Origin: Patescibacteria group bacterium
GTDB taxonomy: Bacteria > Patescibacteriota > Minisyncoccia > Phycocordibacterales > UBA12079
Length of the DNA: 64,000 nucleotides
Assembly (NCBI GenBank): GCA_043800905.1
Contig: JAZDMO010000007.1
Span: 1,627-65,626 of the forward strand
Reading direction: 5' to 3'
Made by a program: the position numbers and the translations under genes. Shown piece by piece: positions 7,450 through 28,460 of this stretch (position 1 is its first letter; each line of letters opens with the position of its first letter). The notes below the pieces were generated by a model that ran no database searches, had not been told where the DNA came from, and saw only the letters and a program-made list of their open reading frames with translations.

Positions 7450-8118
7450 TTAGTGAGCTACGGTGACACAAATAATTTGTTTTGGTTTATATTTTTTCAG
7501 TGTTCGCATAGCTTCTTTGAGAGTGGCTCCTGTGGTAATAACATCGTCTAATAAAATAATATTTTTATCTTTAATTAATTTAGGCATAATTACTTTAAAA
7601 CAATTTTTTAAATTAATTTCTCTTTCTTCTTTGGAATGAGTTCGAGATTGTGGGGTAGTGTGTTTGATTTTTTTTAAAATATTTTTTCTATATTCAAAAG
7701 ATAAACGCTTATCTAAATTGTTTAATTCTTGAGCAATTAATTCTGTTTGGTTATAGCCCCTTTCTTGAAGTTTTTTGTGAGAGATTGGAATTGGAATTAA
7801 AAGAGGATTATCAAAATTATGTGTTAATTTTAAATCGGCTAATTCTTCAATTAAATTATCATAAATTATTTTCGCAAAAATTTTTGCTATTTTCCGATTA
7901 TTTTTGAATTTTAAAGACCAAATACTTTGTCGTACTAATTCATTTTGATAACTCAAAAATGAAAAGGTATTTTTGAGTGGTGGTGGAGAATTTTTAATCG
8001 GTAAAGATAGTAGTGTTTCCGCAGTCATTTTTTCTATTTTTTTCTGGGTAGGGTTTAAGGGAAGTATGGCATTCAGGATAATTCCACAGATTTCTTTAAG
8101 AGACTTGTCAGTTTGCAT
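7450..8118 (-). CDS. comFC: ComF-family phosphoribosyltransferase-domain protein (competence protein ComFC)
   Basis: PRTase-type motif IILLDDVITTGATLKEA plus upstream LIPIPISHKKLQERGYNQTELIA, typical of ComFC/ComF. Confidence 0.7.
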   Translation of the reverse strand: MQTDKSLKEICGIILNAILPLNPTQKKIEKMTAETLLSLPIKNSPPPLKNTFSFLSYQNELVRQSIWSLKFKNNRKIAKIFAKIIYDNLIEELADLKLTHNFDNPLLIPIPISHKKLQERGYNQTELIAQELNNLDKRLSFEYRKNILKKIKHTTPQSRTHSKEEREINLKNCFKVIMPKLIKDKNIILLDDVITTGATLKEAMRTLKKYKPKQIICVTVAH

Positions 8119-8144
8119 ATATTATATGATATAATAATTGAATA

Positions 8145-9320
8145 ATGTTGGAAAATTTTTTAAGTAAAATTACGTTGCCGTCTTTTTTGCAAAAGAAAAA
8201 TAAAAGTTTTCTGGGTATTGATATTGGAAGCTCGGCGATTAAAATTGTGCAATTAAAGAAAGAAAAGGGTACGGCTGTTTTAGAAACTTATGGTGAACTA
8301 GCTTTGGGACCCAAAGCTGGTTTAGAAGTGGGGAGAGCTACTAATCTATCAGATAAGGAAATCAGTGTCGCTTTGATGGATTTAATTCAAGAATCAAGAG
8401 TGAGTGTAACTGAAAGTGGGGCTTCTATTCCGGTGCGTTCTAGTTTAGTTTTTGATATGGAAATTCCTGATATGCCTTTTGAACAATTAAAAAAAATTGT
8501 TCCCATTGAAGCTCGTCGTTATATTCCAGTTCCTATTTCAGAAGTAATGTTGGATTGGAGAATTGTTCCTAAGGAAATAAAAGAAGAGGATGAAGAAGAT
8601 CCTGAAGACAAGAGATTGGCCGCTCAAAGACCTGCTGATAATTTTGTTGATACTGACCAACAAAAGATAATTGGAAAAACAAAAGTTTTTGTGGTGGCTA
8701 TTCATAAAAATGCTCTGGAAAAGTGTCAGGGAATTATAAAAAACGCTCAATTAAATTTAAATTTTTTAGAAATAGAAATTTTCAGTACCATTCGTTCTGC
8801 AGTAAACCATAATATTGGAACGGTGGCACTTTTAGATATAGGGGCGGGGGTAAGTAAAATGTATATTGTAGAATATGGGGTGATTAAAGATTCTCATATT
8901 ATTAATCGTGGCTCACAAGATATTTCTTTGGCGATTTCTCATGCTATTGGTGTGTCTGTAGATGAGGCTGAAGAAAAAAAGAGAAGTATTGGGCTTACAG
9001 GGCAAGACGGAGTGCAGAAGGAGGTTTCTGATATTATCTCGGCTAATCTTAAATACATTTTAACGGAAGCCAATAACGCCATTAAGCATTATCAAACAAT
9101 CAATAATAAGAATATTAGTGAATTGATTTTTACTGGGGGAGGTTCTGTTATAAAAGGTTTACCAGCTTTTGCTTCTTCTGTTTTAGAAATTAATTCTGAA
9201 ATCGCCAATCCTTTTAGTAAGGTTAAAACACCAGCTTTTTTGGATGACGTGCTAAAAGAAATTGGTCCGGAGTTTGCTGTGGCAGTAGGTTTGGCTTTAA
9301 GAGGTTTAGAAGATAATTAA
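8145..9320 (+). CDS. pilM: type IV pilus assembly protein PilM (actin-like ATPase fold)
   Basis: LGIDIGSSAIKIVQL start, ALLDIGAGVSKMYIV, and a C-terminal FAVAVGLALRG, typical of PilM. First gene of a pilM-N-O arrangement. Confidence 0.8.
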   Translation: MLENFLSKITLPSFLQKKNKSFLGIDIGSSAIKIVQLKKEKGTAVLETYGELALGPKAGLEVGRATNLSDKEISVALMDLIQESRVSVTESGASIPVRSSLVFDMEIPDMPFEQLKKIVPIEARRYIPVPISEVMLDWRIVPKEIKEEDEEDPEDKRLAAQRPADNFVDTDQQKIIGKTKVFVVAIHKNALEKCQGIIKNAQLNLNFLEIEIFSTIRSAVNHNIGTVALLDIGAGVSKMYIVEYGVIKDSHIINRGSQDISLAISHAIGVSVDEAEEKKRSIGLTGQDGVQKEVSDIISANLKYILTEANNAIKHYQTINNKNISELIFTGGGSVIKGLPAFASSVLEINSEIANPFSKVKTPAFLDDVLKEIGPEFAVAVGLALRGLEDN

Positions 9321-9425
9321 TTAAAAAAAATAAAAGAGATCTTGAATTTTATTTTATTATCTTTTTATTTTTTCTTTGTCCACACTTTTATTGTGTTGGA
9401 TCTTTTTTTTGTTATATAATATTAA

Positions 9426-9998
9426 TTGATGGATACTTCTTTTATTCCAAAAAAAGATTTCACTCGTAAAGAAAATAGTAAGAATTATATTGGTTTTGCT
9501 ACCATAGTTTCTATTGTTATTTTTATTGTCGCATTATTTGCTGCGGGAGGGGTTTACTTTTATAAACAGTTTTTAATGGGAGAAATTGAAAATAAATCTA
9601 TTACTTTGACTCAAGAAAAAGGCGGTTTAGATTTAAATGTAATTCAAGAACTTTCTCGTTTCGATGAACGAATAGAATCTGCTACTAAATTATTAAATTC
9701 TCACGTTTCTTTGATTCCTCTTTTTGAATTTTTAGAAGAGAATACTTTAAAAGGGGTTCGTTACGAGCGTTTTACTTTTTCGGTAGAAAAAGGAGGCTTA
9801 GCTCTTGATTTAAAAGGTGAGGCAAGTAGCTACGCAACCGTAGCTTTACAGTCAGAAATTTTTGGAAGTAATAAAAATATTATTGATCCTATTTTTTCTG
9901 ATTTAGGAGTAAGCCCTTCTGGTAATATTACTTTTTCTTTTTCTTCTAAATTAGATCCACGATTAATTTCTTATCGAGATAATTTAACTACTGAATAA
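9426..9998 (+). CDS. pilN: PilN-like bitopic pilus alignment protein
   Basis: Position directly after pilM. A single TM helix near the N-terminus (FATIVSIVIFIVALFAAGGVYFY) followed by a periplasmic domain. No strong sequence signature. Confidence 0.5.
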   Translation: MMDTSFIPKKDFTRKENSKNYIGFATIVSIVIFIVALFAAGGVYFYKQFLMGEIENKSITLTQEKGGLDLNVIQELSRFDERIESATKLLNSHVSLIPLFEFLEENTLKGVRYERFTFSVEKGGLALDLKGEASSYATVALQSEIFGSNKNIIDPIFSDLGVSPSGNITFSFSSKLDPRLISYRDNLTTE

Positions 9999-9999
9999 T

Positions 10000-10536
10000 A
10001 TGTTTAAATTTGCATTACCAATTATATTAATAATAACTTCTGGGGGATTGTTTTTTTCCTATGTTGATCCTAATTATCAAGAAATCCAATCTTTAGAAGA
10101 TTTAAATGGGCAGTATGATGAAGCCTTAAATAAGTCTAAGGAATTACGAGATGTTCGTGATTCTTTGCTTTCTAAATTTACTGCTTTTAAAGTGGAAGAA
10201 ACTGAAAAATTAGAAAAATTATTACCAGATCATTTTGACAACATTAGATTAATTATGGATATTGATGCTATTGCTTCGAAATATAATGTTTTAATAAGAA
10301 AGGTTGACGTATCCAATGCAGGTTCGACTGAGAGTGGTTTAGGAAAAAATACTGATAGTTATAATTCTCTTAGTTTAGATTTTACCATTGAAGCTACCTA
10401 TGATAATTTCCAAAGATTTTTGGATGATTTAACTAATAGTCTTAGAATGGTGGATGTGACAAATCTTTCTTTTCAAGCTTCAAGTTTAAATTTATTTAGA
10501 TACAGTTTAAGTCTTAAAACATATTGGTTAAAATAA
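10000..10536 (+). CDS. pilO: PilO-like bitopic pilus alignment protein
   Basis: Abuts pilN with a 1-bp gap. N-terminal TM helix plus a coiled-coil-like segment, consistent with PilO. Confidence 0.5.
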   Translation: MFKFALPIILIITSGGLFFSYVDPNYQEIQSLEDLNGQYDEALNKSKELRDVRDSLLSKFTAFKVEETEKLEKLLPDHFDNIRLIMDIDAIASKYNVLIRKVDVSNAGSTESGLGKNTDSYNSLSLDFTIEATYDNFQRFLDDLTNSLRMVDVTNLSFQASSLNLFRYSLSLKTYWLK

Positions 10537-10542
10537 AAATTT

Positions 10543-10902
10543 ATGGAAAAAGTAAAAAATAAAAAAACAAATATATTTTCTTTGCTAGGTATTATGGCGG
10601 TTTTGTTTTTTGCTTATCTTTTTATGGCTTCGGCAGCGACTGGTGGTTCTCAATTAGTATCTTTGGGGGCTAAAAATACCAGTGGGGATGTGGGGAGAGA
10701 GACTCTTGAAACTTTATTAAAACTTAAATCTTTGAGATTGGATGGAACCATTTTTGAAGATCAGGTTTTTCTTTCTCTAAAAGATTTTAGCGTTGAATTA
10801 AAAGAACAGCCAAAGGGAAGAAATAATCCTTTTGCTGTTTTGGGAGATGATACTGATTATATTGTTTCGGACGAAGTGTCGGCGGATGAAGAATCAAACT
10901 AG
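10543..10902 (+). CDS. hypothetical small membrane protein with acidic C-terminus, in the pilus operon
   Basis: 119 aa, one TM helix (LLGIMAVLFFAYLFMA). Sits between pilO and pilB. Confidence 0.3.
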   Translation: MEKVKNKKTNIFSLLGIMAVLFFAYLFMASAATGGSQLVSLGAKNTSGDVGRETLETLLKLKSLRLDGTIFEDQVFLSLKDFSVELKEQPKGRNNPFAVLGDDTDYIVSDEVSADEESN

Positions 10903-10917
10903 CAGAAGATTACAATT

Positions 10918-12639
10918 ATGGGTTTTACAGATATTTTAATAAAGAAAAATATCATTTCTGCTTCTCAGCTAGCAGAGTTTCAAAAAGAAGTTGACTCCTC
11001 TAAAGATTTAGAGGAAGTTTTGGTTGAAAAAAATATTTCTCGTGAAGAAATAAATAAAGCCAAAGAAGAATATTATAATCTTCCCGTTAAAGATTTAAAT
11101 GTTGATAATTTTAATTATAAGGCTTTAAAATATGTTCCAGAAAAATCCGCGGTTCATTATGAATTTATTCCTTTGGGAGTTAAGGATGGTTTTTTAGAGG
11201 TGGGTATTGTTGATCCATCTAATATTGAAGCGAGAGATGCCATTGAATTTATTTCCTCAAAAGTTAAATTGCCTTTTAAACTTTTTTTGATTTCCAAGGC
11301 TAATTTTAGAATTGCTTTAGATGGCTATAAAGGTTTGCGAGGAGAAGTTTCTCAAGCTTTAACAGAACTAGAGTTGGAACTTAACGAAGAAGAAGAAAAG
11401 ATTAGTAACGCTGTTTCTAAAATAAAAAAAGGACATTCTGATTATGATGCTACGATTACTGAAGACGCACCAGTAACTAAGATTGTGGCAACTATTTTGA
11501 GATATGCTTCTGAGGGAGAAGCTTCTGATGTTCATATTGAACCTTCGGCAGAAAAAGTTCGAGTACGTTTTCGTGTTGATGGAATTTTGGATACTCATCT
11601 AGTTTTACCAACCAAAGTTCATGGGGCGGTGGTAGCTAGAATAAAAATTTTATCTCAGATGCGTTTGGATGAAAAAAGAAAACCGCAAGATGGAAGATTT
11701 TCTGCCAAAATAGATAGTCATAAAGTTGATTTTCGTGTTTCTACTTTTCCTACTTACTATGGAGAAAAAGTAGTTATGCGTCTTCTTGAAGCGGATAAAG
11801 GAGCAGGGCGATTGGAAGAAACTGGTTTGAGTGATAGTCATTTGAAAATTATTAAAAGATGTATTCAAAGACCGCATGGTTTAATTTTAATTTCTGGTCC
11901 GACTGGTTCAGGAAAAAGTACCACTTTATATTCTATTTTGAGTGAAATTGATCGTTTAAGTAAAAATGTGTTATCTCTGGAAGATCCTGTTGAAAGAAAT
12001 GTTGAAGGGGTTAGTCAGTCACAGGTGCGAGCTGAGATTGGTTACACTTTTGCTAGTGGATTAAGAACTATTTTGCGACAAGACCCAGATGTTATCATGG
12101 TGGGAGAGATTCGAGATAAGGAAACAGCTGGTTTGGCTATTCAAGCTGCCTTAACTGGTCACTTAGTTTTTTCGACCATTCACACCAATGACGCAGTGGG
12201 GGTAATTCCTCGTTTAATTGAAATGGATGTGGATCCTTATTTGATTGCCCCAACTCTTATTTTAGCTATGGCACAAAGACTAACTCGTCGTTTGTCTGAA
12301 GGCTCTGGCAAACCTTTACCAATAGAGGGGAGTATTAAGATGATGATAGATAAGGCTTTTGAAAGTTTGCCTCAAGAATTTAGAAAAGATATTGTTTTTC
12401 CAGAAAATGTTTATGAAGCTAGTCCGACTAAAGATAACCCTACTGGATTAAAGGGGAGAATTGGTGTTTATGAGTTGATTGAAATGGATAGAGATATTGA
12501 AGAAACTATTTTAAAAAACCCAGACAGTATGGATTTGGAAACTTTAGTTCGTCAGAAAGGAATGATTACCATGAAACAAGATGCTTTGATTAAGGCTTTT
12601 AATAAAATTATCCCTTTTGAAGAAGCTAATAAACTTTAA
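10918..12639 (+). CDS. pilB: type IV pilus assembly ATPase PilB (GspE family)
   Basis: Walker A GPTGSGKSTTLYS, Asp box, His box TIHTNDAVG. The N-terminal GSPII-like domain is typical of PilB. Confidence 0.85.
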   Translation: MGFTDILIKKNIISASQLAEFQKEVDSSKDLEEVLVEKNISREEINKAKEEYYNLPVKDLNVDNFNYKALKYVPEKSAVHYEFIPLGVKDGFLEVGIVDPSNIEARDAIEFISSKVKLPFKLFLISKANFRIALDGYKGLRGEVSQALTELELELNEEEEKISNAVSKIKKGHSDYDATITEDAPVTKIVATILRYASEGEASDVHIEPSAEKVRVRFRVDGILDTHLVLPTKVHGAVVARIKILSQMRLDEKRKPQDGRFSAKIDSHKVDFRVSTFPTYYGEKVVMRLLEADKGAGRLEETGLSDSHLKIIKRCIQRPHGLILISGPTGSGKSTTLYSILSEIDRLSKNVLSLEDPVERNVEGVSQSQVRAEIGYTFASGLRTILRQDPDVIMVGEIRDKETAGLAIQAALTGHLVFSTIHTNDAVGVIPRLIEMDVDPYLIAPTLILAMAQRLTRRLSEGSGKPLPIEGSIKMMIDKAFESLPQEFRKDIVFPENVYEASPTKDNPTGLKGRIGVYELIEMDRDIEETILKNPDSMDLETLVRQKGMITMKQDALIKAFNKIIPFEEANKL

Positions 12640-12679
12640 AAATTTAGGGATCGTTTAATAAATTATGTTTCTTTTTGTG

Positions 12680-12712
12680 AAGGATTTTGCAGAGCAAAAT
12701 CCTTCCGTTTGT
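12680..12712 (+). terminator. intrinsic terminator after pilB
   Basis: Hairpin gaaggattttgc-agag-caaaatccttc followed by a T-run. Confidence 0.5.
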
Positions 12713-12754
12713 TTTATTTATTATTACTAGATTACGAAGTAATTTAGTATTCAT

Positions 12755-12843
12755 CGTCTGTCTGTTCGTCATTACGAGGAAAAAATTAAGGTTCAAAAGT
12801 TTTAAAACTTTTGAACCTTAATTTTTGACGTGGTAATCCAGAA
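12755..12843. repeat. copy of an approx. 90-bp hairpin repeat (cgtcattacgagg..aaggttcaaaagttttaaaacttttgaacctt..gacgtggtaatccag)
   Basis: Near-identical to 19029-19132. The internal hairpin differs from that copy by compensatory changes (ggttc/gaacc here, gcctc/gaggc there). Confidence 0.6.
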
Positions 12844-12859
12844 TTATATATTAAGACTT

Positions 12860-13340
12860 AATGAAAAATTAATCAGGCTGTTTTATAAAATTCTTTCTGG
12901 ATTGCTTCGTCACTCCACTGCGTTCCGTTCCTCGCAATGACGGACGACGAAAAGCAAAACGTCTCTGCGAGATCAGATTTTTTAATAAAAATCTGATCGT
13001 GGCAGTCCAGACTTGTGAAATCACGAAGTGATTTAATTAAAAAACTAAAACCTCACTCGCAAAGACGAAAAACAAAGTTTTTCGTTACGTTTTGCGTTAA
13101 GCAAAACGTCTCTGCGAGGCACGAAGCAGTCCAGTAATAAAGTGTTTTTAGGAGGAGTGAAATAATATGATACTTGTCCGCCTTGCCTGCCCCTGCACGC
13201 CGGCAGGCGGGGGTAGACAGGTTGCTTCGTAAACTCGCAATGATGAATGACGAGATGCTGGGTTGATTTATAGACTTGTAATGATAAGTGAATGGATTTT
13301 TTAAAGTAAGATCCCCCTTCCTAAATTTATTCGCCGTGGC
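12860..13340. mobile_element. composite cluster of nested GC-rich MITE-like modules filling the pilB-pilT intergenic region
   Basis: No ORF. Contains atcaggctg..ctggattgcttcg (an inverted copy of the terminus seen at 16090-16129), cctcgcaatgacg, gtctctgcgag twice, cagtccag, and ccttgcctgcccctgcacgccggcaggcggg (an inverted copy of the 58556/63797 module). Modules recur at 15894, 19029, 25482, 31203, 58337 and 63775. Confidence 0.55.
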
Positions 13341-13461
13341 GGGTGGTGGTGAATTTGCGGGTTTTCCCCAGCAAGAGAATATATTTCTTTTCTGTTTTCT
13401 TGTATAATTATAATTAAGATTTGGGTTTTAAAAAATCCAATAGCTCAATAAATTAAATTTT

Positions 13462-14520
13462 ATGGAAAATAAAACTTTATTAAATGAATTAGTCGCTGAT
13501 GTCATCAAAGAAAATGCTTCTGATATTCACTTATCTGTAAATCAAAACCCGTCTATTCGAATTCATGGGGCTCTTTTTGAACTTAAAAAATATCCCGTGG
13601 TCACTGAAGAAAATTTAATTGGAATTATTGATGAAATTTTAACTCCGTCGTTTAAAGAAAGGTTTTTAAAAGAAAAAGAAATTGATTTTTCTTATGAAAT
13701 TGCCGAAGCACGATTTAGAGGAAGTTGTTTTTTTAGCCAGAAATCTATTTGTATTAGTCTGCGATTAATTCCCAAGGTGGTGGGGACTTTGGATGAACTT
13801 AATTTGCCCCCATCTTTACTTAATTTTACAAGAAAGGAACAAGGATTTTTTTTAGTGGTTGGTCCTATGGGTCATGGTAAATCCACAACCTTAGCATCTA
13901 TGATTGATTCTATAAATAAAGAAAGAACTGAACATATTGTGACCATTGAAGACCCTGTGGAATATGTTTATCTTAAAGATAAATCTCTTATTGATCAGAG
14001 AGAGGTGGGGGTTGATACTAAAGATTTTCCTACCGCTTTGAAATCAGCTTTTAGACAGGATGCTGATGTTATTATGATTGGTGAGATGCGAGGTTTGGAA
14101 ACTATTTCAACGGCTGTCACGGCTGCAGAAACAGGACATTTGGTTTTTTCAACTTTACATACCAATAACGCAGCTCAAACCGTTGATAGGATTATTGATG
14201 CTTTTCCTGCTAATCAACAGGATCAAATTAGAGTGCAGTTAGCAGGGTCGCTTTTGGGAATTTTTTCTCAAAGATTAATTCCTAGAATTTCTGGAGGAGT
14301 AATTCCAGCCTATGAACTACTAATTAATAATAACGCTATTTCTAATTTGATTCGTGAAGGTCGTTCTTTTGAAATTCAAAATGTTATTGAAACTTCTTCT
14401 AATGAAGGTATGGTAAGTTTAAATAGGTCTTTAGCTGAATTGGTTCGCTTAGGTGAGGTTACTATGGAGAATGCTAGAAAATATTCAACTACTGAAGGTG
14501 ATTTGGATAAATTGTTTTAG
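13462..14520 (+). CDS. pilT: twitching-motility/retraction ATPase PilT
   Basis: Walker A GPMGHGKSTTLAS, His box TLHTNNAAQT. Its 352-aa size is typical of PilT, shorter than PilB. Confidence 0.85.
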   Translation: MENKTLLNELVADVIKENASDIHLSVNQNPSIRIHGALFELKKYPVVTEENLIGIIDEILTPSFKERFLKEKEIDFSYEIAEARFRGSCFFSQKSICISLRLIPKVVGTLDELNLPPSLLNFTRKEQGFFLVVGPMGHGKSTTLASMIDSINKERTEHIVTIEDPVEYVYLKDKSLIDQREVGVDTKDFPTALKSAFRQDADVIMIGEMRGLETISTAVTAAETGHLVFSTLHTNNAAQTVDRIIDAFPANQQDQIRVQLAGSLLGIFSQRLIPRISGGVIPAYELLINNNAISNLIREGRSFEIQNVIETSSNEGMVSLNRSLAELVRLGEVTMENARKYSTTEGDLDKLF

Positions 14521-14532
14521 GAAAAAATAATT

Positions 14533-15738
14533 ATGTTATTTAAATATAAAGTTGTTGATAATAAAGGAATAGAAAAAGAAGGAAGTATTGAAGCTACCAG
14601 CGAGGAGGTGGCTATTGCTTCTTTGCAAGATCGAGCCTATGTTATTACTTATATTGCTCCAGTTAAGAATACAAACTTTTTAAATTTTGAATTCACTTTT
14701 TTTCAAAAAGTTTCTAATAAGGATGTTGTTATGTTGTCTAAACAAATGGCAACTTTGTTTGGAGCGCAAGTTTCCGCTTTGAGAATTTTTAGACTATTGG
14801 GAGATGAATCAGAAAACCCAATGTTAAAAAGGGTTTTGAAAAAAGTGGCGGATGATATTCAAGGAGGTAATCCGATTTCTCTGGCTTTATCTAAACACCC
14901 AAAGGTTTTTTCTGAATTTTACGTCAATATGGTTAAGTCGGGTGAGGAAGCGGGAACTTTAAACGATACTTTTGCTTATTTAGCAGAGCATCTTGATAGA
15001 AATTATGACTTGGTTTCAAAAGTAAAAAATGCTTTGATTTATCCTATTTTCGTGGTGATTGTTTTTTTTGTGGTTATGGTTTTGATGTTAACTATGGTTA
15101 TTCCTAAAATTAGCTTGATTTTGTTAGACGCTGGACAGGATTTACCTTTTCTTACTAGGGTAGTTATCGGAATTAGTAATTTTTTTGTTAATTACGGTAT
15201 TTTTTTGTTAGTGGCAGTTATCGTTGGTATTTTTATGTTTATTCGTTTTTCCAGAACTCAAGCGGGGAAAATGTCCATCGGTCGTTTTTCTCTAGCCGTT
15301 CCTTATATAGGAGACTTGTATAAAAAAATGTATTTAGCAAGAATTGCTGGAAATATGCAAACCATGTTGGCGAGCGGGGTTTCTATTGTTAAAGCTGTAG
15401 AAACCACGGCTGATGTAGTCGATAGTGTTATTTATCGTGAAATTTTGGAAAAAGCTGCTCAATCAATTAAAACAGGAATTTCTGTTTCTGGAGCTTTGAG
15501 TGGTTATGATGAGGTTCCTAATATCATGGTGCAAATGATTAAGATTGGAGAGGAAACAGGAGAATTAAGTAATATTTTAAGTACTCTTTCTCGTTTCTAT
15601 GAAAGAGAAGTTAACGGAGCGGTTGATATGTTAGTTGGAATGATTGAACCAGCGATGATTGTTTTTCTTGGCTTGGGAGTAGGGGGATTGATGGCAGCAG
15701 TGTTGATGCCAATTTACAATATCTCTTCAGCGATTTAA
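14533..15738 (+). CDS. pilC: type IV pilus inner-membrane platform protein PilC (GspF family)
   Basis: Two GspF-like repeats with TM segments. Approx. 400 aa, directly downstream of pilT. Confidence 0.8.
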   Translation: MLFKYKVVDNKGIEKEGSIEATSEEVAIASLQDRAYVITYIAPVKNTNFLNFEFTFFQKVSNKDVVMLSKQMATLFGAQVSALRIFRLLGDESENPMLKRVLKKVADDIQGGNPISLALSKHPKVFSEFYVNMVKSGEEAGTLNDTFAYLAEHLDRNYDLVSKVKNALIYPIFVVIVFFVVMVLMLTMVIPKISLILLDAGQDLPFLTRVVIGISNFFVNYGIFLLVAVIVGIFMFIRFSRTQAGKMSIGRFSLAVPYIGDLYKKMYLARIAGNMQTMLASGVSIVKAVETTADVVDSVIYREILEKAAQSIKTGISVSGALSGYDEVPNIMVQMIKIGEETGELSNILSTLSRFYEREVNGAVDMLVGMIEPAMIVFLGLGVGGLMAAVLMPIYNISSAI

Positions 15739-15800: not shown

Positions 15801-16429
15801 ATGACCTATAATTTAGAGGAAAGAACCGCTAAATACTCTGAAAATGTTATTTCTTTGATTAAAAGTGTCAAAATAAGGCTTAATGAAAAAAATATCAGGC
15901 TGAAAATGATAAACTAGCTAGTCTTAATATTATTTAAAATGATTTTTAATTAAAAACTTAAATATTTAAATTATAAAGAATTTAATTGTTTTAAAAATTT
16001 CTAGACTGCTTCGCAAGCTCGCAGAGACGAATGATTTCATCGTCCATTCGTTATTGCGAGGAATAAGATGCAGAGAAACAGAATCTTATGACGAAGCAAT
16101 CCAGAAAGAATTTCATAAAATAGCCTGATTAATTTACTATTAAGCTCAAAATAACATTGTTAAACAAAAACATAGTTGAACAATTATCAAAATCAGCCAC
16201 AAGTATCGGGGTTAACTATCATGAAACGAATAACGCTAGTTCTAAGAAAGATTTTATAAATAAGATTTATTTTTGTAAAAAAGAGGCTAACGAAACAAGA
16301 TATTGGTTAGATTTATTAAATAAAAATGAAATAAAGTTTACAGAAGATATTGGTTTATTGAAAAAAGAGAATCAAGAACTAGTCATGATTTTCCAGAAAA
16401 TAATCAATACTTCAAACAACAAACATTGA
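15801..16429 (+). pseudogene. four-helix-bundle protein (23S-rRNA-IVS-protein family) gene, split into an N-fragment (15801-15920) and a C-fragment (16157-16429) by an inserted repeat element
   Basis: The N-fragment translation MTYNLEERTAKYSENVISLIKSVKIRLNEKNI... matches the family N-terminus and ends at a stop inside the inserted element. The C-fragment QLSKSATSIGVNYHETNNASSKKDFINKIYFCKKEANETRYWLDLL matches the family C-terminal half. Confidence 0.5.
15894..16129. mobile_element. 236-bp MITE-like element with 8-bp terminal inverted repeats (atcaggct/agcctgat), inserted into the four-helix-bundle gene
   Basis: Termini atcaggct (15894) and agcctgat (16122). Inside are ctcgcagagacg, cgttattgcgagg and gacgaagcaatccag modules. 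The same terminus plus adjoining approx. 35 bp occurs inverted at 12872-12906. Confidence 0.5.
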
Positions 16430-16574
16430 AAATTGAGAATTGTAAACTGAAAATTGTTTTGATTTATCCCCAGAAAGACTTTCTTTTCTTTGCTTTTTGG
16501 GAGTATAATCAAATAAACGCAAATTATATTTGTTATTAATTATTAGTTATTAATTTAATATTATTAAAAATAAT

Positions 16575-17069
16575 ATGAAGAAATTTATGAAAAAGGATAC
16601 AAAAGGTTTTTCTCTTATCGAACTTTTGATTGTGGTTGCGATCATGGGAATTCTATCCGCCGTTGTTTTAAGTTCTTTGGGAACTGCTCGACAAAAAGCG
16701 AGAGATGCTAGAAGAATTTCAGACGTAAAGGATGCCGCTAAGATTTTAGTTATTGCTTCTGATGTGGGAGGAATAAATATTTCAGGTTGTACCACCGCTA
16801 ACGTAGCTTTGAATACTTGTGGAGATGGAACTGATCAATTTATGGATTTAAGAAGTTATTCTGACCCATCAACAGCAACAGCTGTTTGTAGCGGTACAAC
16901 AACTGAAGGTCCTTGTGAATATGGTATTGCAAATATAGATGGAGACGCAAGAGCAACTACAGAAGATTACCAAATTTGTTTTTATCTTGAATATGGAGCA
17001 GGAGATCTTTCTTCTGGTTTAAATTCAGTTGTGGGTCCAATTGGAAACTTGGTAGCTGGTTGTAATTAA
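16575..17069 (+). CDS. type IV (major) pilin, paralog A
   Basis: Class III signal KKDTKG|FSLIELLIVVAIMGILSAVV with Glu at +5. Cys-rich C-terminal domain. The 5' flank and both ends are nearly identical to the gene at 18408. Confidence 0.75.
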   Translation: MKKFMKKDTKGFSLIELLIVVAIMGILSAVVLSSLGTARQKARDARRISDVKDAAKILVIASDVGGINISGCTTANVALNTCGDGTDQFMDLRSYSDPSTATAVCSGTTTEGPCEYGIANIDGDARATTEDYQICFYLEYGAGDLSSGLNSVVGPIGNLVAGCN

Positions 17070-17077
17070 TCTAAATT

Positions 17078-17500
17078 TTGATGATGTTTAATAAACAAAA
17101 TCAAATTGAAAAAGTAGAAACTCTGGGATGTTTAAAAACATCTCGGGGTTTTTCTTTGGTGGAATTGTTAGTATCTATTGCGATCATTGGTATTTTATCT
17201 TCCATTGTTTTAGTTTCTTTAGGAAGTGCTAGAGAAAAGGCCCGTTTAAGTAGAGTTCAAAGTCAAATGACCGCCTTACATCCTCATTTAATAATGTGTA
17301 TTAATGATGGAGTTTCTGTTGACTTTTCTTCTTCTGCTCCTACAGTTGGGGCATCTTTATGTTCTAGTACTAATGTTAATTTTCCAGAATTACCAGCGGG
17401 ATGGTCTTATGTTGTTAGTCCGGTTGGAAGTTATAGGGCTTCAGGAGAAGGGTATCAGGTTAATTGTACAGAAACTGGTTGTGTAACAACTACCCCTTAA
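17078..17500 (+). CDS. type IV pilin-like protein
   Basis: The prepilin motif SRG|FSLVELLVSIAIIGILSSIVLVSL lies after an approx. 20-aa leader. 140 aa. Confidence 0.6.
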   Translation: MMMFNKQNQIEKVETLGCLKTSRGFSLVELLVSIAIIGILSSIVLVSLGSAREKARLSRVQSQMTALHPHLIMCINDGVSVDFSSSAPTVGASLCSSTNVNFPELPAGWSYVVSPVGSYRASGEGYQVNCTETGCVTTTP

Positions 17501-18198
17501 TTATGTTTTTTAATTTTATAAAAAAAGAAAAGCAAGGTTTTCTAGAATATCAGACGGGGTTTACCCCATCAGAAATTTTTATGAAGATATTTGGTGATAT
17601 AAAGAAAAAAATAAGCAGTTTTTTAAAAAATGAAAAGCAAGGTTTTCTAGAATATCAGACGGGGTTTACCCCGTCAGGAATTTTTAATAGTTTGTTATCT
17701 ATAATAAGAAACAAAATGAAAAAAAATCTTTTTAATAAAAAACAAGATTCTTTGAAATTCCAATCGGGGTTTACTTTAACTGAACTTTTGGTGGCTATCG
17801 CGATTATTGGAATTTTATCTTCCATTGTTTTAACTTCAATGAGTGGGGCGAGAGAAAGGGCTAAGGATGGAAAAAGAATTTCTGATATTAAACAAATTCA
17901 GTTAGCTTTAGAATTATATTACGATGTAAATTCTGCTTATCCTGTAGATAATGGTTCTCAAAATATTTTGTATAACGATCCTAAACCTTTAACTAATTTT
18001 TTAAAAATTTCTCAAGACCCCGATGGAACTAATTACCATTATTGGAGTACGGGACAAGATTATCACCTAGGAGCTGTCTTACAACAAACAAATAATGCTT
18101 TAGATGACGACGATGATGCTACTGGTGGTTTTGAAGGTTCTAGTTCTGATTGTGGTTCTGTGACCGGAACAGATTTTTGTTACGATGTAACTCCTTAA
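17464..18198 (+). CDS. type IV pilin preceded by two tandem degenerate prepilin-leader cassettes; the functional start is probably the ATG at 17716
   Basis: The ORF contains two copies of an approx. 107-bp unit encoding KEKQGFLEYQTGFTPSEIF (17527-17580 and 17633-17687). These are followed by a canonical prepilin MKKNLFNKKQDSLKFQSG|FTLTELLVAIAIIGILSSIVL. Confidence 0.6.
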   Translation: MYRNWLCNNYPLIMFFNFIKKEKQGFLEYQTGFTPSEIFMKIFGDIKKKISSFLKNEKQGFLEYQTGFTPSGIFNSLLSIIRNKMKKNLFNKKQDSLKFQSGFTLTELLVAIAIIGILSSIVLTSMSGARERAKDGKRISDIKQIQLALELYYDVNSAYPVDNGSQNILYNDPKPLTNFLKISQDPDGTNYHYWSTGQDYHLGAVLQQTNNALDDDDDATGGFEGSSSDCGSVTGTDFCYDVTP

Positions 18199-18204
18199 AT
18201 TAAA

Positions 18205-18246
18205 AATGAAAAAAGCGGTGGGCTGGTGTCCACCGCTTTTTTTAAT
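18205..18246 (+). terminator. intrinsic terminator after the pilin at 17464
   Basis: aaaaagcggtgggctggtgtccaccgcttttttt: a GC hairpin plus a T-run. Confidence 0.6.
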
Positions 18247-18407
18247 AGAGTTATAAAAAGTAATCATTGTTTTGTTTAATTATTAATTATATTATTTAAA
18301 TGGGATAATTTTTAATCCTTTTAATTGAAGGTATTGTTTAATCAAATAGACACAAATTACATTTGTTATTAATTATTAGTTATTAATTTAATATTATTAA
18401 AAATAAG

Positions 18408-18917
18408 ATGAAGAAATTTATGAAAAAGGATATAAAAGGTTTTTCCCTTATTGAACTTTTGATTGTGGTTGCAATCATGGGAATTCTATCTGCTGTTGTT
18501 TTGAGTTCTCTAGGAACCGCTCGTCAAAAAGCAAGAGACGCTAGAAGAATTTCAGACGTAAAGGATGCCGCTAAGATTTTAGTTATTGCTTCTGATGTGG
18601 GAGGGGTGAGCATCTCAGGTTGTGGTTCTCCTGATGTCGCCTTAAAAACTTGTGGAGACCCTGATATTGAAAATGATCCTTTTATGGATTTAAGAAGTTA
18701 TTCTGACCCTTCTGTTTCTGAAGAAGTTTGTTCAAGTGGAAGAATTATTGCCGACGGTCCCTGTGAGTACGGAATATCTGATATGACTGGTGATGAAGCG
18801 CCCACCACAGAAGATTACCAAATCTGTTTTTTCCTTGAATATGGAGCGGGAGATCTTTCCGCTGGCCTAAATTCTGTTGTGGGTCCAATTGGAAACTTGG
18901 TAGCTGGTTGTAACTAA
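18408..18917 (+). CDS. type IV (major) pilin, paralog B
   Basis: The first approx. 60 aa and last approx. 35 aa are nearly identical to the gene at 16575. The central approx. 70 aa diverge. 78 bp of upstream sequence is conserved with 16497-16574. Confidence 0.75.
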   Translation: MKKFMKKDIKGFSLIELLIVVAIMGILSAVVLSSLGTARQKARDARRISDVKDAAKILVIASDVGGVSISGCGSPDVALKTCGDPDIENDPFMDLRSYSDPSVSEEVCSSGRIIADGPCEYGISDMTGDEAPTTEDYQICFFLEYGAGDLSAGLNSVVGPIGNLVAGCN

Positions 18918-18984
18918 ATTAATTTTTTAAGAAATTTAAGGTTTTTAATAACATAAATAATTATTATTTTCTTCTATTATTTAC

Positions 18985-19022
18985 TTATAAAGTAAAACCC
19001 GTCTTTAGGCGGGTTTTTATTA
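18985..19022 (+). terminator. intrinsic terminator after pilin paralog B
   Basis: gtaaaacccgtctttaggcgggtttttatt. Confidence 0.55.
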
Positions 19023-19028
19023 TCCTTT

Positions 19029-19132
19029 CTCGCAATGACGGTCCGCTTAGGGCGGACCGTCATTGCGAGGAAAAAATTAAGCCTCAAAAGTTTTAAAACT
19101 TTTGAGGCTTAATTTTTGACGTGGCAATCCAG
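19029..19132. repeat. palindromic repeat element (ctcgcaatgacggtccgc..gcggaccgtcattgcgagg + aagcctcaaaagttttaaaacttttgaggctt + gacgtggcaatccag)
   Basis: Two perfect hairpins in series. Same family as 12755-12843 and 31203-31302. Confidence 0.6.
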
Positions 19133-19225
19133 TAAAAATTTAAGTCTTTAAATCTAACCGAAACTATTTTTCAGATGGAAGGGTTTTGTTTTAATGTTCT
19201 GGTGTTTTAATGCTATAATATTTTT

Positions 19226-20050
19226 ATGGAAAAATACCTACTTTATTTTTTTGTTTTTGTTTTGGGAACTATTATTGGTTCTTTTTTGAATGTAGTGATT
19301 TTACGTTTTAAAAAAAATTCTTTAAATGGAAGTTCTTCTTGTCCCCGATGTAAAAAAAATTTAAGATGGTTTGAATTGATTCCAGTTTTAAGCTTCCTTT
19401 TTTTGAAGGGCAGATGTCGCTATTGTCAAAAGAAAATTTCTTGGCAGTATCCTTTAGTAGAAATAGCAACAGGATTATTATTTTTATTTTCTTTTATTTT
19501 TTCCGCCCAAGGCGGATCCGCCTTGGGCGGACAATTTTTCATTAACCTTATTATTTTATGGGTTGTTTTTAGTTTATTGGTAGTAATTTTTGTTTATGAT
19601 TTATACCATAAAATTATTCCTAATATTTTTGTATATCTTTTTATATTATTTTCTTTTTTAAAAGTCATCATAACTTTTCAAAATTTTTCTTTCGGGGCTG
19701 ATATTTGGGCGGGGTTTTTAGTCTCTTTTCCTTTTGCTTTTTTATGGTTTGTTTCAGGAGGAAGGTGGCTTGGTTTTGGAGATGTAAAATTAGCCTTAGG
19801 TATTGGTTGGTTTTTAGGTTTAGTTCAGGGTTCTACTGCAGTTATTTTAGCTGTTTGGATGGGAGCCTTGGTTGGTTTGATTTTGGTTGGTTTAACAAAG
19901 TTATCCGAAAAACATAGATTGTTTTTTAGGCTTAATAATTTTACAATTAAAAGTGAATTACCTTTTGCCCCCTTTTTAATATTAGGTATTGTGATCACTT
20001 TTTTCTTTGACTTAGATGTTTGGGGCTTGGGAGCTTTGCTTCATGGTTAA
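19226..20050 (+). CDS. pilD: prepilin peptidase PilD (A24 family) carrying an in-frame palindromic insertion
   Basis: N-terminal zinc-ribbon CPRC...CRYC, a polytopic membrane domain, and the C-terminal GFGDVKL catalytic Asp region. 19503-19530 is the perfect palindrome ccgcccaaggcggatccgccttgggcgg, which encodes SAQGGSALGGQ in frame. Confidence 0.8.
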   Translation: MEKYLLYFFVFVLGTIIGSFLNVVILRFKKNSLNGSSSCPRCKKNLRWFELIPVLSFLFLKGRCRYCQKKISWQYPLVEIATGLLFLFSFIFSAQGGSALGGQFFINLIILWVVFSLLVVIFVYDLYHKIIPNIFVYLFILFSFLKVIITFQNFSFGADIWAGFLVSFPFAFLWFVSGGRWLGFGDVKLALGIGWFLGLVQGSTAVILAVWMGALVGLILVGLTKLSEKHRLFFRLNNFTIKSELPFAPFLILGIVITFFFDLDVWGLGALLHG

Positions 20051-20055
20051 TCTTT

Positions 20056-20631
20056 ATGAAATTTAAATTCTCCAAAATTTTTTTAGGAAATAATCAGAGA
20101 GGATTTTCTTTGATGGAACTTTTAGTGACCATTGCTATTTTAATGGTGGTTTCTGGTTTAGTTTTTTTTAATCAATCACAATTTAATAATAGTACTTTGA
20201 TAGAAAATTTGGCTTATGAAATGTCCTTAGCTATTCGACAAGCCCAGTCTTTCGGCTTACAAGTAAAAGGAATTGGGGCAGATTTTGATAATGGTTATGG
20301 TGTTTATTTTGAAAAGGACTCTGATGAATTTTTAATTTTTTCTGATACCTATCCTGTAACCCCTAATTTTGTTTATGATGACGGTTATGATGAGATTATT
20401 GATCGCTTGAAGATGACCAACAAAAATCGTATAGACTATTTATGTATTGATGAAAATTGTTTAGTTGATACCTTGAATATTAGTTTTAAAAGACCAAATC
20501 CCAATGCAATTATTAAAGTTGATGATTCGGGAACAGAAGGTTCAGAGGGATCCATTCATATTATTTCACCGAAGGGTTTAGAAAAGAATATTAATGTGAA
20601 TGGCGTTGGCCAAATTTATATAGGATCGTAA
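20056..20631 (+). CDS. pseudopilin/minor pilin (prepilin-type N-terminus)
   Basis: MKFKFSKIFLGNNQRG|FSLMELLVTIAILMVVSGLVFF. The ATG at 20056 is taken as the start because the tracked ORF's 5' end overlaps the pilD stop. Confidence 0.6.
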   Translation: MKFKFSKIFLGNNQRGFSLMELLVTIAILMVVSGLVFFNQSQFNNSTLIENLAYEMSLAIRQAQSFGLQVKGIGADFDNGYGVYFEKDSDEFLIFSDTYPVTPNFVYDDGYDEIIDRLKMTNKNRIDYLCIDENCLVDTLNISFKRPNPNAIIKVDDSGTEGSEGSIHIISPKGLEKNINVNGVGQIYIGS

Positions 20632-20651
20632 AAGTCAAAAAACATTAAAGC

Positions 20652-21371
20652 ATGAAAATATTAAAACAAAAATTAAAAAGAATTAATTCTCTAGAATATC
20701 AGATGGGGTTTATCCTGTCAGTAATTTTTAAAAATATGATTAATTTTTTAAAAAACAAAACGACTAAAATATTCAAAGATAAAAAAGAGGGTTCTTTGAA
20801 ATTTCAAACAGGGTTTACATTGGTGGAAATGATTACAGCTGTAGCAATTTTTGCTTTGGTGATGGTTGTGGCTATGGGTTCTTTATTGAATGTCCTATCT
20901 GCTAATAGACAAAGCCAAGCAATTCAAACCGCAGTGAATAACCTTAATCTTGCAATGGAAACCATGTCTCGTGAGATTAGAACAGGTTACAATTATCATT
21001 GTGGTTCCTGTTTTGGGTCAGATTGTACTACTGATAATGACTGCCCCGCAGGTGATTCTTCTATTGCCTTTGAACCTTATAATGGGAATCCCTCTTCTTA
21101 TAGTGATCAAGTAATTTTTATGTTTGATCAGGATAATCAACAGATTCTAAAATCGACTAACAACGGAGATGATTATTTAGGATTAACTTCTCCTGAATTA
21201 CATGTGGAAGATTTGACTTTTATTGTAGTCGGTTCGGATCCTAGTGATACTAGACATCCTAAGGTCTTAATTACCGCTAGCGGTTATGTTCAAAGCGATT
21301 CTAATACTCAAACTTCTTTTAACTTACAAACAACAGTTTCTCAAAGGTTAATTGATTTTGATTTATGGTAA
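20652..21371 (+). CDS. pseudopilin with one upstream degenerate leader cassette; probable true start at the ATG at 20736
   Basis: Upstream cassette NSLEYQMGFILSVIF, then MINFLKNKTTKIFKDKKEGSLKFQTG|FTLVEMITAVAIFALVMVV. Confidence 0.55.
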   Translation: MKILKQKLKRINSLEYQMGFILSVIFKNMINFLKNKTTKIFKDKKEGSLKFQTGFTLVEMITAVAIFALVMVVAMGSLLNVLSANRQSQAIQTAVNNLNLAMETMSREIRTGYNYHCGSCFGSDCTTDNDCPAGDSSIAFEPYNGNPSSYSDQVIFMFDQDNQQILKSTNNGDDYLGLTSPELHVEDLTFIVVGSDPSDTRHPKVLITASGYVQSDSNTQTSFNLQTTVSQRLIDFDLW

Positions 21372-22219
21372 AAATAATGAATTTAAAAAATAAAAAACAA
21401 GATTCTTTGAAATTCCAATCGGGGTTTACCCCGTCAGAAATTTTTAGTAGTTTGCTATCTATAATAAGAAACAAAATGAAAAAAAATCTTTTTAATAAAA
21501 AACAAGATTCTTTGAAATATCAGACGGGGTTTACCCCATCAGAAATTTTTATAAAGATATTTGGTAATATAAAGAAAAAAATAAGCAGGTTTTTAAAAAA
21601 TGAAAAGCAAGGTTTTGTAGAATATCAGACGGGGTTTACCCTGTCAGTAATTTTTAAAAATATGATTAATTTTTTAAAAAACAAAACGACTAAAATATTC
21701 AAAGATAAAAAAGTGGGTTCTTTGAAATTTCAAACAGGGTTTACCCTGATAGAAACTTTTGTGGCTGTTACGGTTTTGTTGATTGCCATCACCGGTCCTT
21801 TGTATTTAGTAGCAAAAGGTTTGTCAGTTTCTAAATCTGCTAAAAATCAGGTGACAGCTATGTATTTGGCTCAAGAAGCTGTTGAATATATTCGAAATAT
21901 TCGAGATGAAAATATTTTAAAAGGTCAGGATTGGCTGACTGGTTTAGATTATTGTTTAAATGGTAGTAAGTGTGCTATTGATTCGCCTCAAGAAGAAATC
22001 CTCTTGTGTTCGGGAGTTTGTAATTTTTTGAAATATGATGAAGATAAATATCTTTATACCTATTCCAGCGGGACAGCTAGTCCTTTTCGTCGAGAAATTA
22101 GTCTTTTACCTATTGGCAACACTGGGACAGAGGTAGAAATTTTAGTTGATATGTATTGGAATGATGGACCAAATCAAAAAGATTTTGAGGTTAGAGAACA
22201 TTTGTTGAATTGGCAATAA
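21365..22219 (+). CDS. pseudopilin whose 5' region is a mosaic of four prepilin-leader cassettes
   Basis: Encoded cassettes: KKQDSLKFQSGFTPSEIF, KKQDSLKYQTGFTPSEIF, KQGFVEYQTGFTLSVIF, and finally VGSLKFQTG|FTLIETFVAVTVLLIAITG. DNA blocks are near-identical to 17583-17680, 17700-17760 and 20736-20820. Confidence 0.55.
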   Translation: MVKIMNLKNKKQDSLKFQSGFTPSEIFSSLLSIIRNKMKKNLFNKKQDSLKYQTGFTPSEIFIKIFGNIKKKISRFLKNEKQGFVEYQTGFTLSVIFKNMINFLKNKTTKIFKDKKVGSLKFQTGFTLIETFVAVTVLLIAITGPLYLVAKGLSVSKSAKNQVTAMYLAQEAVEYIRNIRDENILKGQDWLTGLDYCLNGSKCAIDSPQEEILLCSGVCNFLKYDEDKYLYTYSSGTASPFRREISLLPIGNTGTEVEILVDMYWNDGPNQKDFEVREHLLNWQ

Positions 22220-22275
22220 GGTTAGTAGATTAGAGAACTTAGATAAATTTAGAGAATTAGGATAAAAAATAAAAA

Positions 22276-22833
22276 ATGTTTAATTTAAGAAAAATATTAA
22301 AACAAAATAAAAAAATAAACAAAGAAAATTTACGAAGTAAATTTTCTCCTTTACGAAATTTCAACTTTATGAACCTTAAGACTAGTTCTGGATTTGTTTC
22401 TATGATTGCCTTATTATTAGCAAATATTTTTTTGATAATTGGTTTGTCCGTTTTTAATATTGCTTTAAGAGAATTTACTCTTTCCTCTGGCTCGCGGGAA
22501 TCTCTTTTTGCTTTTTATGCAGCTGATGGAGGAATGGAATGTGCTTTATATTGGGATTTAAAAGAAGGTGTTTTTGCTACTAGTACTTCTGCTACAGAAT
22601 TAAATTGTAATAACCAGACTATTGCCATAACCTCTGATAGGTCTGTGGCTGGAGATGGAAGAGAGAATTCTTTTAGCTATAGTTTTATAGAAGGTGAGTT
22701 AAATTCACCTTGTGTTACTGTTTATTTAAATAAAAAAGATGATGGAGGGACTGTTATCCGCTCTTATGGTAAAAATTCTTGTGATGAAAGCAATAATCGA
22801 CGAGTAGAAAGAGCTTGGCAAGTGACTTATTAA
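22276..22833 (+). CDS. hypothetical PilX-like minor pilin/pilus-associated protein
   Basis: N-terminal basic leader, then a hydrophobic helix SSGFVSMIALLLANIFLIIGLSVF and a Cys-containing C-domain. Last gene of the pilus block. Confidence 0.35.
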   Translation: MFNLRKILKQNKKINKENLRSKFSPLRNFNFMNLKTSSGFVSMIALLLANIFLIIGLSVFNIALREFTLSSGSRESLFAFYAADGGMECALYWDLKEGVFATSTSATELNCNNQTIAITSDRSVAGDGRENSFSYSFIEGELNSPCVTVYLNKKDDGGTVIRSYGKNSCDESNNRRVERAWQVTY

Positions 22834-22903
22834 ACAAAAGATCTTAAAATATAAAAATATGGCGAACGGAGTTTCAGCTTCGTTCGTCTTGTTTTTAGCT
22901 TAA

Positions 22904-24943
<2,040 letters not shown>

Positions 24944-28094: not shown

Positions 28095-28165
28095 CGCGGG
28101 ATGGTGTAGTGGTCGCACGGGAGGCTCATAACCTCCAGGGGTTTGTTCGATTCAAACTTCCGCAA
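28095..28165 (+). tRNA. tRNA-Met (anticodon CAU), initiator-like with a C1·A72 mismatch
   Basis: Manual fold: acceptor cgcggga/ttccgca with 1-72 C·A; D-stem gtgt/gcac; anticodon stem ggagg/cctcc with loop ctCATaa; 4-nt variable loop; T-arm gtttg-ttcgatt-caaac. CCA is not encoded. Followed by terminator aaaaccaccttaattaaggtggtttt (28170-28205). Confidence 0.6.
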
Positions 28166-28261
28166 CAAGTAAACAAAACCACCTTAATTAAGGTGGTTTT
28201 GTTTTGGGAAGTATTTAAAATTTTTTGTAAATATGTTATATTGTTTTTCGTATTAATAAAT

Positions 28262-28335
28262 GTCGGCGTAGCTCAGTTGGTTAGAGCGCAGCACTCATAA
28301 AGCTGAGGTCGAAGGTTCAACTCCTTCCGTCGACA
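28262..28335 (+). tRNA. tRNA with CAU anticodon: elongator Met or Ile2 (lysidine)
   Basis: Acceptor gtcggcg/cgtcgac; D-arm gctc-agttggtta-gagc; anticodon loop ctCATaa; T-arm gaagg-ttcaact-ccttc. Confidence 0.65.
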
Positions 28336-28387
28336 CACAGATTGTTGAGAAAATTAAGGATATCTGTTAAAGTATGTGTGCACTTTG

Positions 28388-28460
28388 CGGGTGTAGCTCA
28401 GCTGGTTAGAGCGTCCGCCTGTCACGCGGAAGGTCGAGGGTTCAAGTCCCTTCACTCGCG
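28388..28460 (+). tRNA. tRNA-Asp (GUC)
   Basis: Acceptor gcgggtg/cactcgc; anticodon stem tccgc/gcgga with loop ctGTCac; T-arm gaggg-ttcaagt-ccctt. A terminator hairpin follows at 28470-28500. Confidence 0.75.

Follow-up and report, generated by a model that had tools for sequence, protein, structure and literature searches.

Why should two pilin genes of one pilus locus be nearly alike at both ends and differ in the middle? This question is raised by a 64-kb stretch of DNA (hereafter the window; G+C content, 31%) on contig JAZDMO010000007.1 (82,274 bp), from a metagenome-assembled genome (MAG) of a Paceibacteria-like member of the Patescibacteria. The two paralogs, here called pilin A and pilin B, had been described in a sequence-only reading as a substrate for antigenic variation, with conserved ends and a divergent core as the signature of gene conversion between cassettes. 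Here, a different answer is favored. With a probability of about 0.7, the pair goes back to a lineage-specific duplication that left two intact pilins, the ends of which are held by selection, with occasional short conversion at most.

Two intact type IV pilin genes in a single pilus locus

Both pilin genes lie inside a single type IV pilus locus, with PilM, PilO, PilB, PilT, and PilC encoded upstream and PilD downstream, as identified by Pfam scans. The two genes and their 5' regions are located as follows.

16575-17069, + strand: pilin A
18408-18917, + strand: pilin B (PF07963)
16503-16574, + strand: 5' region of copy A, an A/U-rich, unstructured putative 5' untranslated region
18336-18407, + strand: 5' region of copy B, homologous to 16503-16574; further upstream, the DNA is unrelated to A

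The genes are complete, co-oriented open reading frames (ORFs) encoding 164 (A) and 169 (B) amino acids; pilin A has 160 amino acids if translation starts at the ATG at 16587, which is the start annotated by NCBI. The proteins are 80% identical (135/169 positions; E=4e-97), and the description of two paralogous pilins with conserved ends and a variable middle, probably formed by surface loops, was borne out. Both carry a class III signal peptide with the leader MKKFMKKD(T/I)KG, followed by FSLIELLIVVAIMGIL after the cleavage site; in both, prepilin cleavage falls between G11 and F12, with Glu at position +5 (E16 in pilin A). The PF07963 scores were 34.9 and 34.3 bits (cutoff, 21.2; E=9.6e-9 for pilin A), and both pilins also scored above the cutoff of TIGR02532.

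AlphaFold2 models with the 48-sequence family alignment as input reached a predicted local distance difference test (pLDDT) score of 91.4 for A and 91.2 for B. Both models showed the lollipop fold of type IV pilins, in which an alpha1 helix of about 50 residues (helix 10-60) is followed by loops that contain one short helix and by a C-terminal sheet of three to four strands. The secondary structure was the same in the two models, and the additional residues of B fell in loops. In a Foldseek comparison with the PDB, the top match of pilin A was the full-length PAK pilin 1oqw (probability, 0.97; template modeling score, 0.47-0.52), and sequence likeness to solved pilins was restricted to alpha1. 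Every family-invariant residue is kept in A and B, including six Cys, and the assembly ATPase, the platform protein, and the prepilin peptidase are encoded in the same locus. A and B are genuine, intact type IV pilin paralogs.

Of the pilin genes that follow pilC, the family pilin comes first in every related locus. Its content of Gly, Ala, Ser, and Thr (GAST), an index applied to sheared pilins (PMC11623550), was 39% in A and 34% in B, compared with 24-26% in PilB and PilT. From position, conservation, and composition, we infer that the family pilin is the major pilin.

Conserved ends and a divergent core

The homology between the two copies extends over 16503-17091 and 18336-18939, with 82% identity at the DNA level, and stops abruptly at both sides; in B it ends about 22 bp past the stop codon. 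The shared upstream sequence is present, although it measures 72 bp and not the 78 bp first noticed, and 66 of its 71 positions are identical. Within the genes, divergence was expressed as the proportion of synonymous differences (pS) and the nonsynonymous distance (dN).

Codons 1-45: 11 synonymous and 1 nonsynonymous differences; pS 0.38, dN 0.01
16707-16771, + strand, codons 45-66: a 65-bp perfect match
16773-16955, + strand, codons 67-127: variable core of A; dN 0.31, pS 0.66, with indels of 3 and 2 codons
Last 37 codons: dN 0.02, pS 0.34

At the protein level, the ends are indeed shared almost exactly, with one amino acid change in codons 1-66 (98% identity) and two in the last 37 codons (95% identity). 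At the DNA level, however, they are about 10% divergent, and nearly all of these differences are synonymous. The core had been called unrelated apart from the Cys positions, but it is about 51% identical in amino acid sequence and contains an invariant FMDLRSYSDPS island, of which FMDLRSYSDP is encoded by a 29-bp identical stretch (16839-16867), as well as a conserved GPCEYGI motif. In the model, the core of A is made up of the loops that connect alpha1 to the beta-sheet, two of which are bounded by Cys. The core of B (18606-18803) is Asp/Glu-rich with a net charge of -11, whereas that of A is Thr/Ala-rich with a net charge of -6. The core had a dN/dS ratio of about 0.2 and thus gave no indication of positive selection.

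Exact identity blocks of at least 20 bp were found at 16528-16573, 16575-16599, 16620-16639, 16707-16771, 16839-16867, and 17028-17065 (A coordinates). Thus, the identity breakpoints expected from a DNA alignment exist in part: there are exact blocks of up to 65 bp, but their edges are only partly sharp. The similarity of A and B is far above chance.

The conservation pattern across the pilin family

At least 55 full-length homologs were collected, mostly from Paceibacteria-type MAGs and metagenomes, and 48 sequences formed the family alignment. In this alignment, about 60 N-terminal and about 40 C-terminal residues (EDYQICFYLEYG..GL.AG.NS..GPIG.L..GC) are conserved across organisms, and the middle is variable except for the Cys and a DPS motif. 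The 46 other family members, all from other organisms, have the same conserved termini, six Cys, and variable middle. In fact, the differences between A and B fall on the columns that are variable in the family (mean entropy, 1.97 versus 1.06 bits; Mann-Whitney p=3e-6). Between species, selection on the pilin fold thus yields conserved ends around a variable core. Since gene conversion cannot act there and the pattern is nevertheless the same, selection would explain it, and the pattern does not serve as a signature of conversion.

The relatives are single copy. In L001, whose ortholog P0003 is 74% identical, and in L003-L005, a single family pilin stands ahead of two pilin-like genes, with PilD next, and each of 17 metagenome loci with the family C-terminal motif has a single copy. 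Copy B is absent from about 20 related loci, and pilin A occupies the ancestral position, as in L001 and L003; copy B is therefore likely to be a lineage-specific extra. Seven derived residues, six of them in the core, are common to A and B when compared with P0003 and P0004, so the two would be sister copies of this lineage. The import of a foreign core or allele into B was ruled out because A and B share these derived core residues.

Other searches for variants gave little. A metagenome scan for the subclade motif DVKDAAKILVIASD returned no matches, and a scan of genome contigs with the family alignment caught generic N-terminal pilin motifs, that is, unrelated pilins from many phyla, and was uninformative on the family. 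In a collection of 15 billion proteins, no close variant was found, and both 90%-identity clusters had one member from one contig.

Possible traces of gene conversion between the copies

Among codons for the same amino acid, 27% differ between A and B in codons 1-45, 5% in codons 46-66, 44% in the core, and 23% at the C terminus. For comparison, between-species synonymous saturation in this A+T-rich family lies at about 32-47% of such codons. In codons 46-66, only 1 of 21 degenerate codons differs, compared with 19 of 76 in the remaining ends, and this longest run of unchanged degenerate codons (21) has a permutation p of 0.025. The 65-bp tract at 16707-16771 is thus a suggestive candidate for recent gene conversion. 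Synonymous differences affect 15 of 34 codons in the core and 20 of 97 in the ends (Fisher p=0.012; p=0.07 without the 65-bp tract).

Because the conserved ends carry substantial synonymous divergence, purifying selection would account for most of the conserved-ends pattern. At most one or two short, fairly recent conversion tracts may lie on top of an old duplication, and the pair does not look like an actively homogenized cassette system.

Known systems of surface variation left no trace that would change this picture. No silent or truncated cassette was detected, as tblastn and blastn showed no further core or C-terminal copy in the 64 kb, and no G-quadruplex (G4) motif (G3+N1-7 x4) occurs on either strand of the whole window. 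Among the 19 ORFs of the locus examined with Pfam (7450-15738 and 16157-24943), no recombinase was found. Copies A and B are direct repeats on the same strand, not the inverted repeats of Piv or the Rci shufflon, and both have a 5' region, an ATG, and a leader, unlike silent cassettes of the Neisseria type. Thus, with both genes complete, the reading as a substrate for antigenic variation is not supported, and an antigenic-variation system at this locus is not demonstrated.

Putative promoter and terminator regions of the two copies

The following features surround the two copies.

16481-16509, + strand: putative promoter of copy A, read from the sequence as TTCTTT-N17-TATAAT with GGAG ahead
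17078-17500, + strand: pilin-like gene 2 (PF07963)
17503-18198, + strand: pilin-like gene 3, GspG-like (PF07963 and PF08334)
18209-18242: bidirectional terminator-like hairpin of 13 pairs with flanking A and T runs, between the A operon and copy B
18994-19017, + strand: terminator-like hairpin with a T run, 3' of copy B
19226-20050, + strand: prepilin peptidase PilD (PF06750, E=3.4e-32, and PF01478), the sole one in the locus

Copy B has the -10 part of the promoter alone (TTTAAT, compared with TATAAT in A), at the homology boundary. A consensus promoter scan found promoter-like sites here no commoner than expected by chance. The upstream sequence of pilin A, ATTTATCCCCA...GGAGTATAAT, also stands ahead of the single ortholog in L001. 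The 5' regions folded no better than shuffled sequences (z scores of +0.84 and +0.91), which indicates no structure, and Rfam reported only tRNAs at the gathering threshold and hairpin noise at E<=1, with no riboswitch or leader family. A Shine-Dalgarno-like sequence is absent at the pilin genes.

Gene 2 begins 8 bp past pilin A with no terminator between them, and it is kept 3' of the family pilin in all related loci. Gene 3 is annotated by NCBI in a 231-amino-acid form and matched TIGR01710 with E=8.7e-13, under the cutoff of that model. In L001, the intergenic region that corresponds to the one holding copy B likewise has two hairpins. At 18253-18290, 93 bp upstream of the B homology, there is a degenerate third copy of the pilin 5'-region motif (71% identical), which may be a duplication remnant or a chance match in A+T-rich DNA.

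A duplication model for the pilin pair

The favored explanation can be laid out as a series of steps. A segment of about 590 bp, from the -10 box to about 22 bp past the stop codon of the putative major pilin gene, would have been duplicated, and the new copy would have been inserted in intergenic DNA, with the third pilin-like gene on one side and pilD on the other. Copy A would still head the ancestral, co-transcribed operon (A, gene 2, and gene 3), and copy B would form a monocistronic unit with terminator hairpins on either side. Purifying selection would hold the same leader, alpha1, and C-terminal sheet with its disulfide in both copies, as in the orthologs. Because these parts are kept, both pilins should be cleavable by the single PilD and polymerized by the single PilB/C/M/N/O set, and they should be able to replace each other in the core of the filament. 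They differ in the loops that follow alpha1 and in those bounded by Cys. The loops between alpha1 and the sheet would be free to vary and would have diverged, B becoming more acidic. Short conversion (the 65-bp tract and the 5' region) may have occurred occasionally and would not be the main cause of the pattern.

Two pilus surfaces would be the outcome, either in mixed filaments or in alternative ones if the upstream regions regulate differently; differential regulation is plausible because the sequence upstream of the shared -10 differs in B. Adhesion and host or phage specificity would probably be altered by the two surfaces. What the analysis shows is that A and B are paralogs, that both are intact, that the conservation pattern runs through the whole family, and that the relatives have one copy; we infer the expression of both copies, their co-assembly, and their function.

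Three points weigh against the duplication model as laid out. First, synonymous divergence is heterogeneous among the segments (chi-square p=0.013), so there may have been some concerted evolution of the ends, or the core may be older. Second, the 5' regions are 93% identical, above the neutral expectation from synonymous sites (P=3e-6); constraint would be at least part of the reason, because this region is also partly conserved in L001 (54 of 71 positions, or 76% of those alignable, with 38 gap columns). Third, the major-pilin status is unproven, and gene 3 carries a more GspG-like globular domain.

Competing explanations

The competitor with the best prospects, still an outside chance, is that one copy has acquired a new nonstructural or specialized role, for example as a pilin of low abundance with a modulating effect on DNA uptake or on the number of pili. 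Xylella offers a precedent, since its PilA1, PilA2, and PilA3 give different or opposing phenotypes (PMC9956873). The monocistronic arrangement and different upstream region of B would suit such a role, as would its core, which is further from the orthologs (41% and 33% identity) than that of A (45% and 44%). However, the rate asymmetry between A and B is not significant (5 versus 8 unique changes, p=0.4), and the invariant residues, the full alpha1, and the C-terminal sheet are kept in both.

Slightly less likely is recombination between the two genes as cassettes. RecA would act on the identical tracts (65, 46, 38, and 29 bp), and the resulting conversion or crossover would swap or homogenize the cores or delete the two intervening genes, so that the pilus surface would vary in the population; this is the sequence-only reading pared down to its minimum. 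Identity tracts do flank the variable segments, and the unchanged 21-codon run, the synonymous heterogeneity, and the core synonymous differences at between-species saturation fit this explanation. Furthermore, near-identical 35-codon modules in three other pilin-like genes (see below) point to exchange within the locus. On the other side, the residual divergence of the ends implies that conversion is rare or old, and the contrast between core and ends weakens once the 65-bp tract is left out. Only two cassettes exist in the 64 kb, each a full expression unit with no G4 motif; no close variant turned up in the protein collection; and the conserved ends recur between species, where conversion is impossible.

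A minimal form of this recombination, in which an episymbiotic bacterium of the candidate phyla radiation would use the 5' region, codons 45-66, the mid-core island, and the 3' end as tracts for a two-cassette switch, reassorting two loop segments or collapsing to a hybrid gene, seems more doubtful again. Such a switch may be mechanistically tied to the recombining 35-codon modules. If it were true, the specificity of the pilus surface would shift within populations, and with it the range of hosts or the susceptibility to phages.

It is very improbable that the pair is an assembly artefact, in which the alleles that two strains have of one pilin gene were joined one after the other when the metagenome was assembled. 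In favor of an artefact, the DNA comes from a MAG, and either protein is known from one contig alone. However, B has unique, nonhomologous flanks, with a terminator to its left and a second terminator, palindromes, and pilD to its right; the boundaries of the homology are precise and lie within intergenic DNA; and the copies differ by indels and about 18% of bases. Mutagenic retrohoming into the pilin core by a diversity-generating retroelement (DGR), at which an Avd-like four-helix-bundle gene (PF05635/TIGR02436) directly upstream of copy A might hint, was rejected as scarcely credible, because the substitutions are not adenine-specific (35/90 at A in copy A and 17/90 in copy B), a crude YxDD scan of the window revealed no reverse-transcriptase-like ORF (the sole YLDD is in a 212-amino-acid ORF), and the variable region is not C-terminal in a C-type lectin-like fold.

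Neighboring genes and other features of the locus

The other genes of the locus are arranged as follows.

7450, minus strand: phosphoribosyltransferase, at the start of the locus gene order
8145: PilM
9426: PilN-like gene
10000: PilO
10543: unassigned gene between PilO and PilB
10918-12639: PilB
13462-14520: PilT
14533-15738: PilC
16157-16429: truncated four-helix-bundle gene of the 23S intervening sequence protein/Avd-like type (PF05635, TIGR02436)
20020-22833: four further pilin-like genes
22937: LigA

The four-helix-bundle gene has a TTG start and sits between pilC and pilin A. L001 and L003, although syntenic, lack it, and it is not accompanied by DGR components. Five tRNA genes are clustered at 28095-28721.

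Three pilin-like genes contain tandem modules of 105 nt (35 codons), in frame and upstream of the real prepilin leader; gene 3 has two of these pseudo-leader modules ahead of its real leader peptide. The module stretches in the window and in relatives are listed below.

17514-17717: in gene 17503-18198
20652-20790: in gene 20652-21371
21388-21760: in gene 21365-22219
8994-9071 and 11204-11923: in L001
10403-11101: in L003

Each module is Lys-rich and leader-like and ends in [FY]Q[TS]G followed by FTPSE, a motif that resembles a prepilin cleavage site but is not followed by a hydrophobic helix. The module end is encoded by GGGGTTTACCCCGTCAGAAA, a GC hairpin followed by a T run, with an RNA folding z score of -3.7 for one copy. 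Over 86, 53, and 128 codons, the stretches contain no stop in the gene frame and 5 to 19 in the other frames. The relatives have one such module, and the long ORFs are annotated by NCBI. Three module types are nearly identical between genes (pS 0-0.3), and this near-identity indicates recent exchange of modules between the genes. A protein search with the modules matched only proteins of this same contig. The modules could be an extended or multisite leader, or attenuator hairpins that set the dosage of minor pilins.

Palindromic elements resembling repetitive extragenic palindromic (REP) sequences or miniature inverted-repeat transposable elements occupy the enlarged intergenic gaps between PilB and PilT, between PilC and the four-helix-bundle gene, and between pilin B and PilD.

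12767-12841 and 19058-19132: two 75-nt copies, 92% identical
12857-12912 and 16089-16144: inverted with respect to each other
12928, 13234, 16049, and 19026-19072: CTCGCAATGACG motifs

The 75-nt copies show compensatory stem changes (GGTTC/GAACC versus GCCTC/GAGGC). The elements fold at -30 to -34 kcal/mol (z scores of -6.7 to -7.8) and match no Rfam family.

On the 5' side of pilD (19209-19228), there is an extended -10 box, TGCTATAAT, with the counterpart TGATATAAT in L001 (about 9720-9738). Since this box stops just 7-9 nt short of the ATG, a leaderless pilD mRNA is suggested. To us, the pseudo-leader modules, the REP-like palindromes, and the apparently leaderless pilD looked more unusual than the pilin pair.

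Comparison with known pilin systems

Paralogous major pilins served by one machinery occur as pilAI/pilAII in Pseudomonas stutzeri and as PilA4/PilA5 in Thermus. As reported previously, PilA1, PilA2, and PilA3 of Xylella fastidiosa are paralogous pilins with diverged roles (PMC9956873). A and B resemble the Xylella-type paralogs in that at least two complete pilin genes with their own signals, a common N-terminal assembly region, and a differing globular part lie in or near one pilus locus. They differ in being unusually alike at both ends, in having a common 5' untranslated region, and in their host, a Patescibacteria MAG, in which they are known from sequence alone.

Among the Patescibacteria, the episymbiont TM7x of the Saccharibacteria likewise has two small lollipop-type major pilins, PilA1 and PilA2 (PMC11623550). 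The TM7x pilins, however, are dissimilar and belong to two separate machineries and loci, whereas A and B are close paralogs in one locus with one PilB/C/D set. With pilE/pilS of Neisseria, the pair shares conserved segments that flank variable ones, Cys-bounded loops, and short identical tracts by which recombination could be guided (PMC3547852, PMC6796969). In Neisseria, a single gene is expressed, the numerous silent copies lack a promoter and are truncated at the 5' end, and a G4 with a small-RNA promoter lies upstream; none of these features was found in the window. A and B, by contrast, both possess the N-terminal constant region, and the synonymous divergence of their ends is old. The PAK pilin of Pseudomonas aeruginosa (type IVa) is the best fold match and is similar in the alpha1 sequence, but identity is 22%. 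Moreover, three Cys pairs are conserved in the family of A and B, and its C-terminal region is conserved rather than hypervariable; the variable part lies between alpha1 and the sheet.

Thus, A and B are ordinary paralogous pilins of one type IV pilus locus that probably give mixed or alternative pilus surfaces. Other bacteria provide well-known cases of pilin duplicates whose ends are conserved, and a new mechanism is not required here. Patescibacteria pili mediate host binding and motility (PMC11623550). So far as is known, these bacteria make contact with their hosts chiefly through type IV pili, and differences in the surface loops of the pilins are therefore candidate determinants of host range. 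With the same assembly parts and different surfaces, A and B form a clean natural pair for asking which loops matter.

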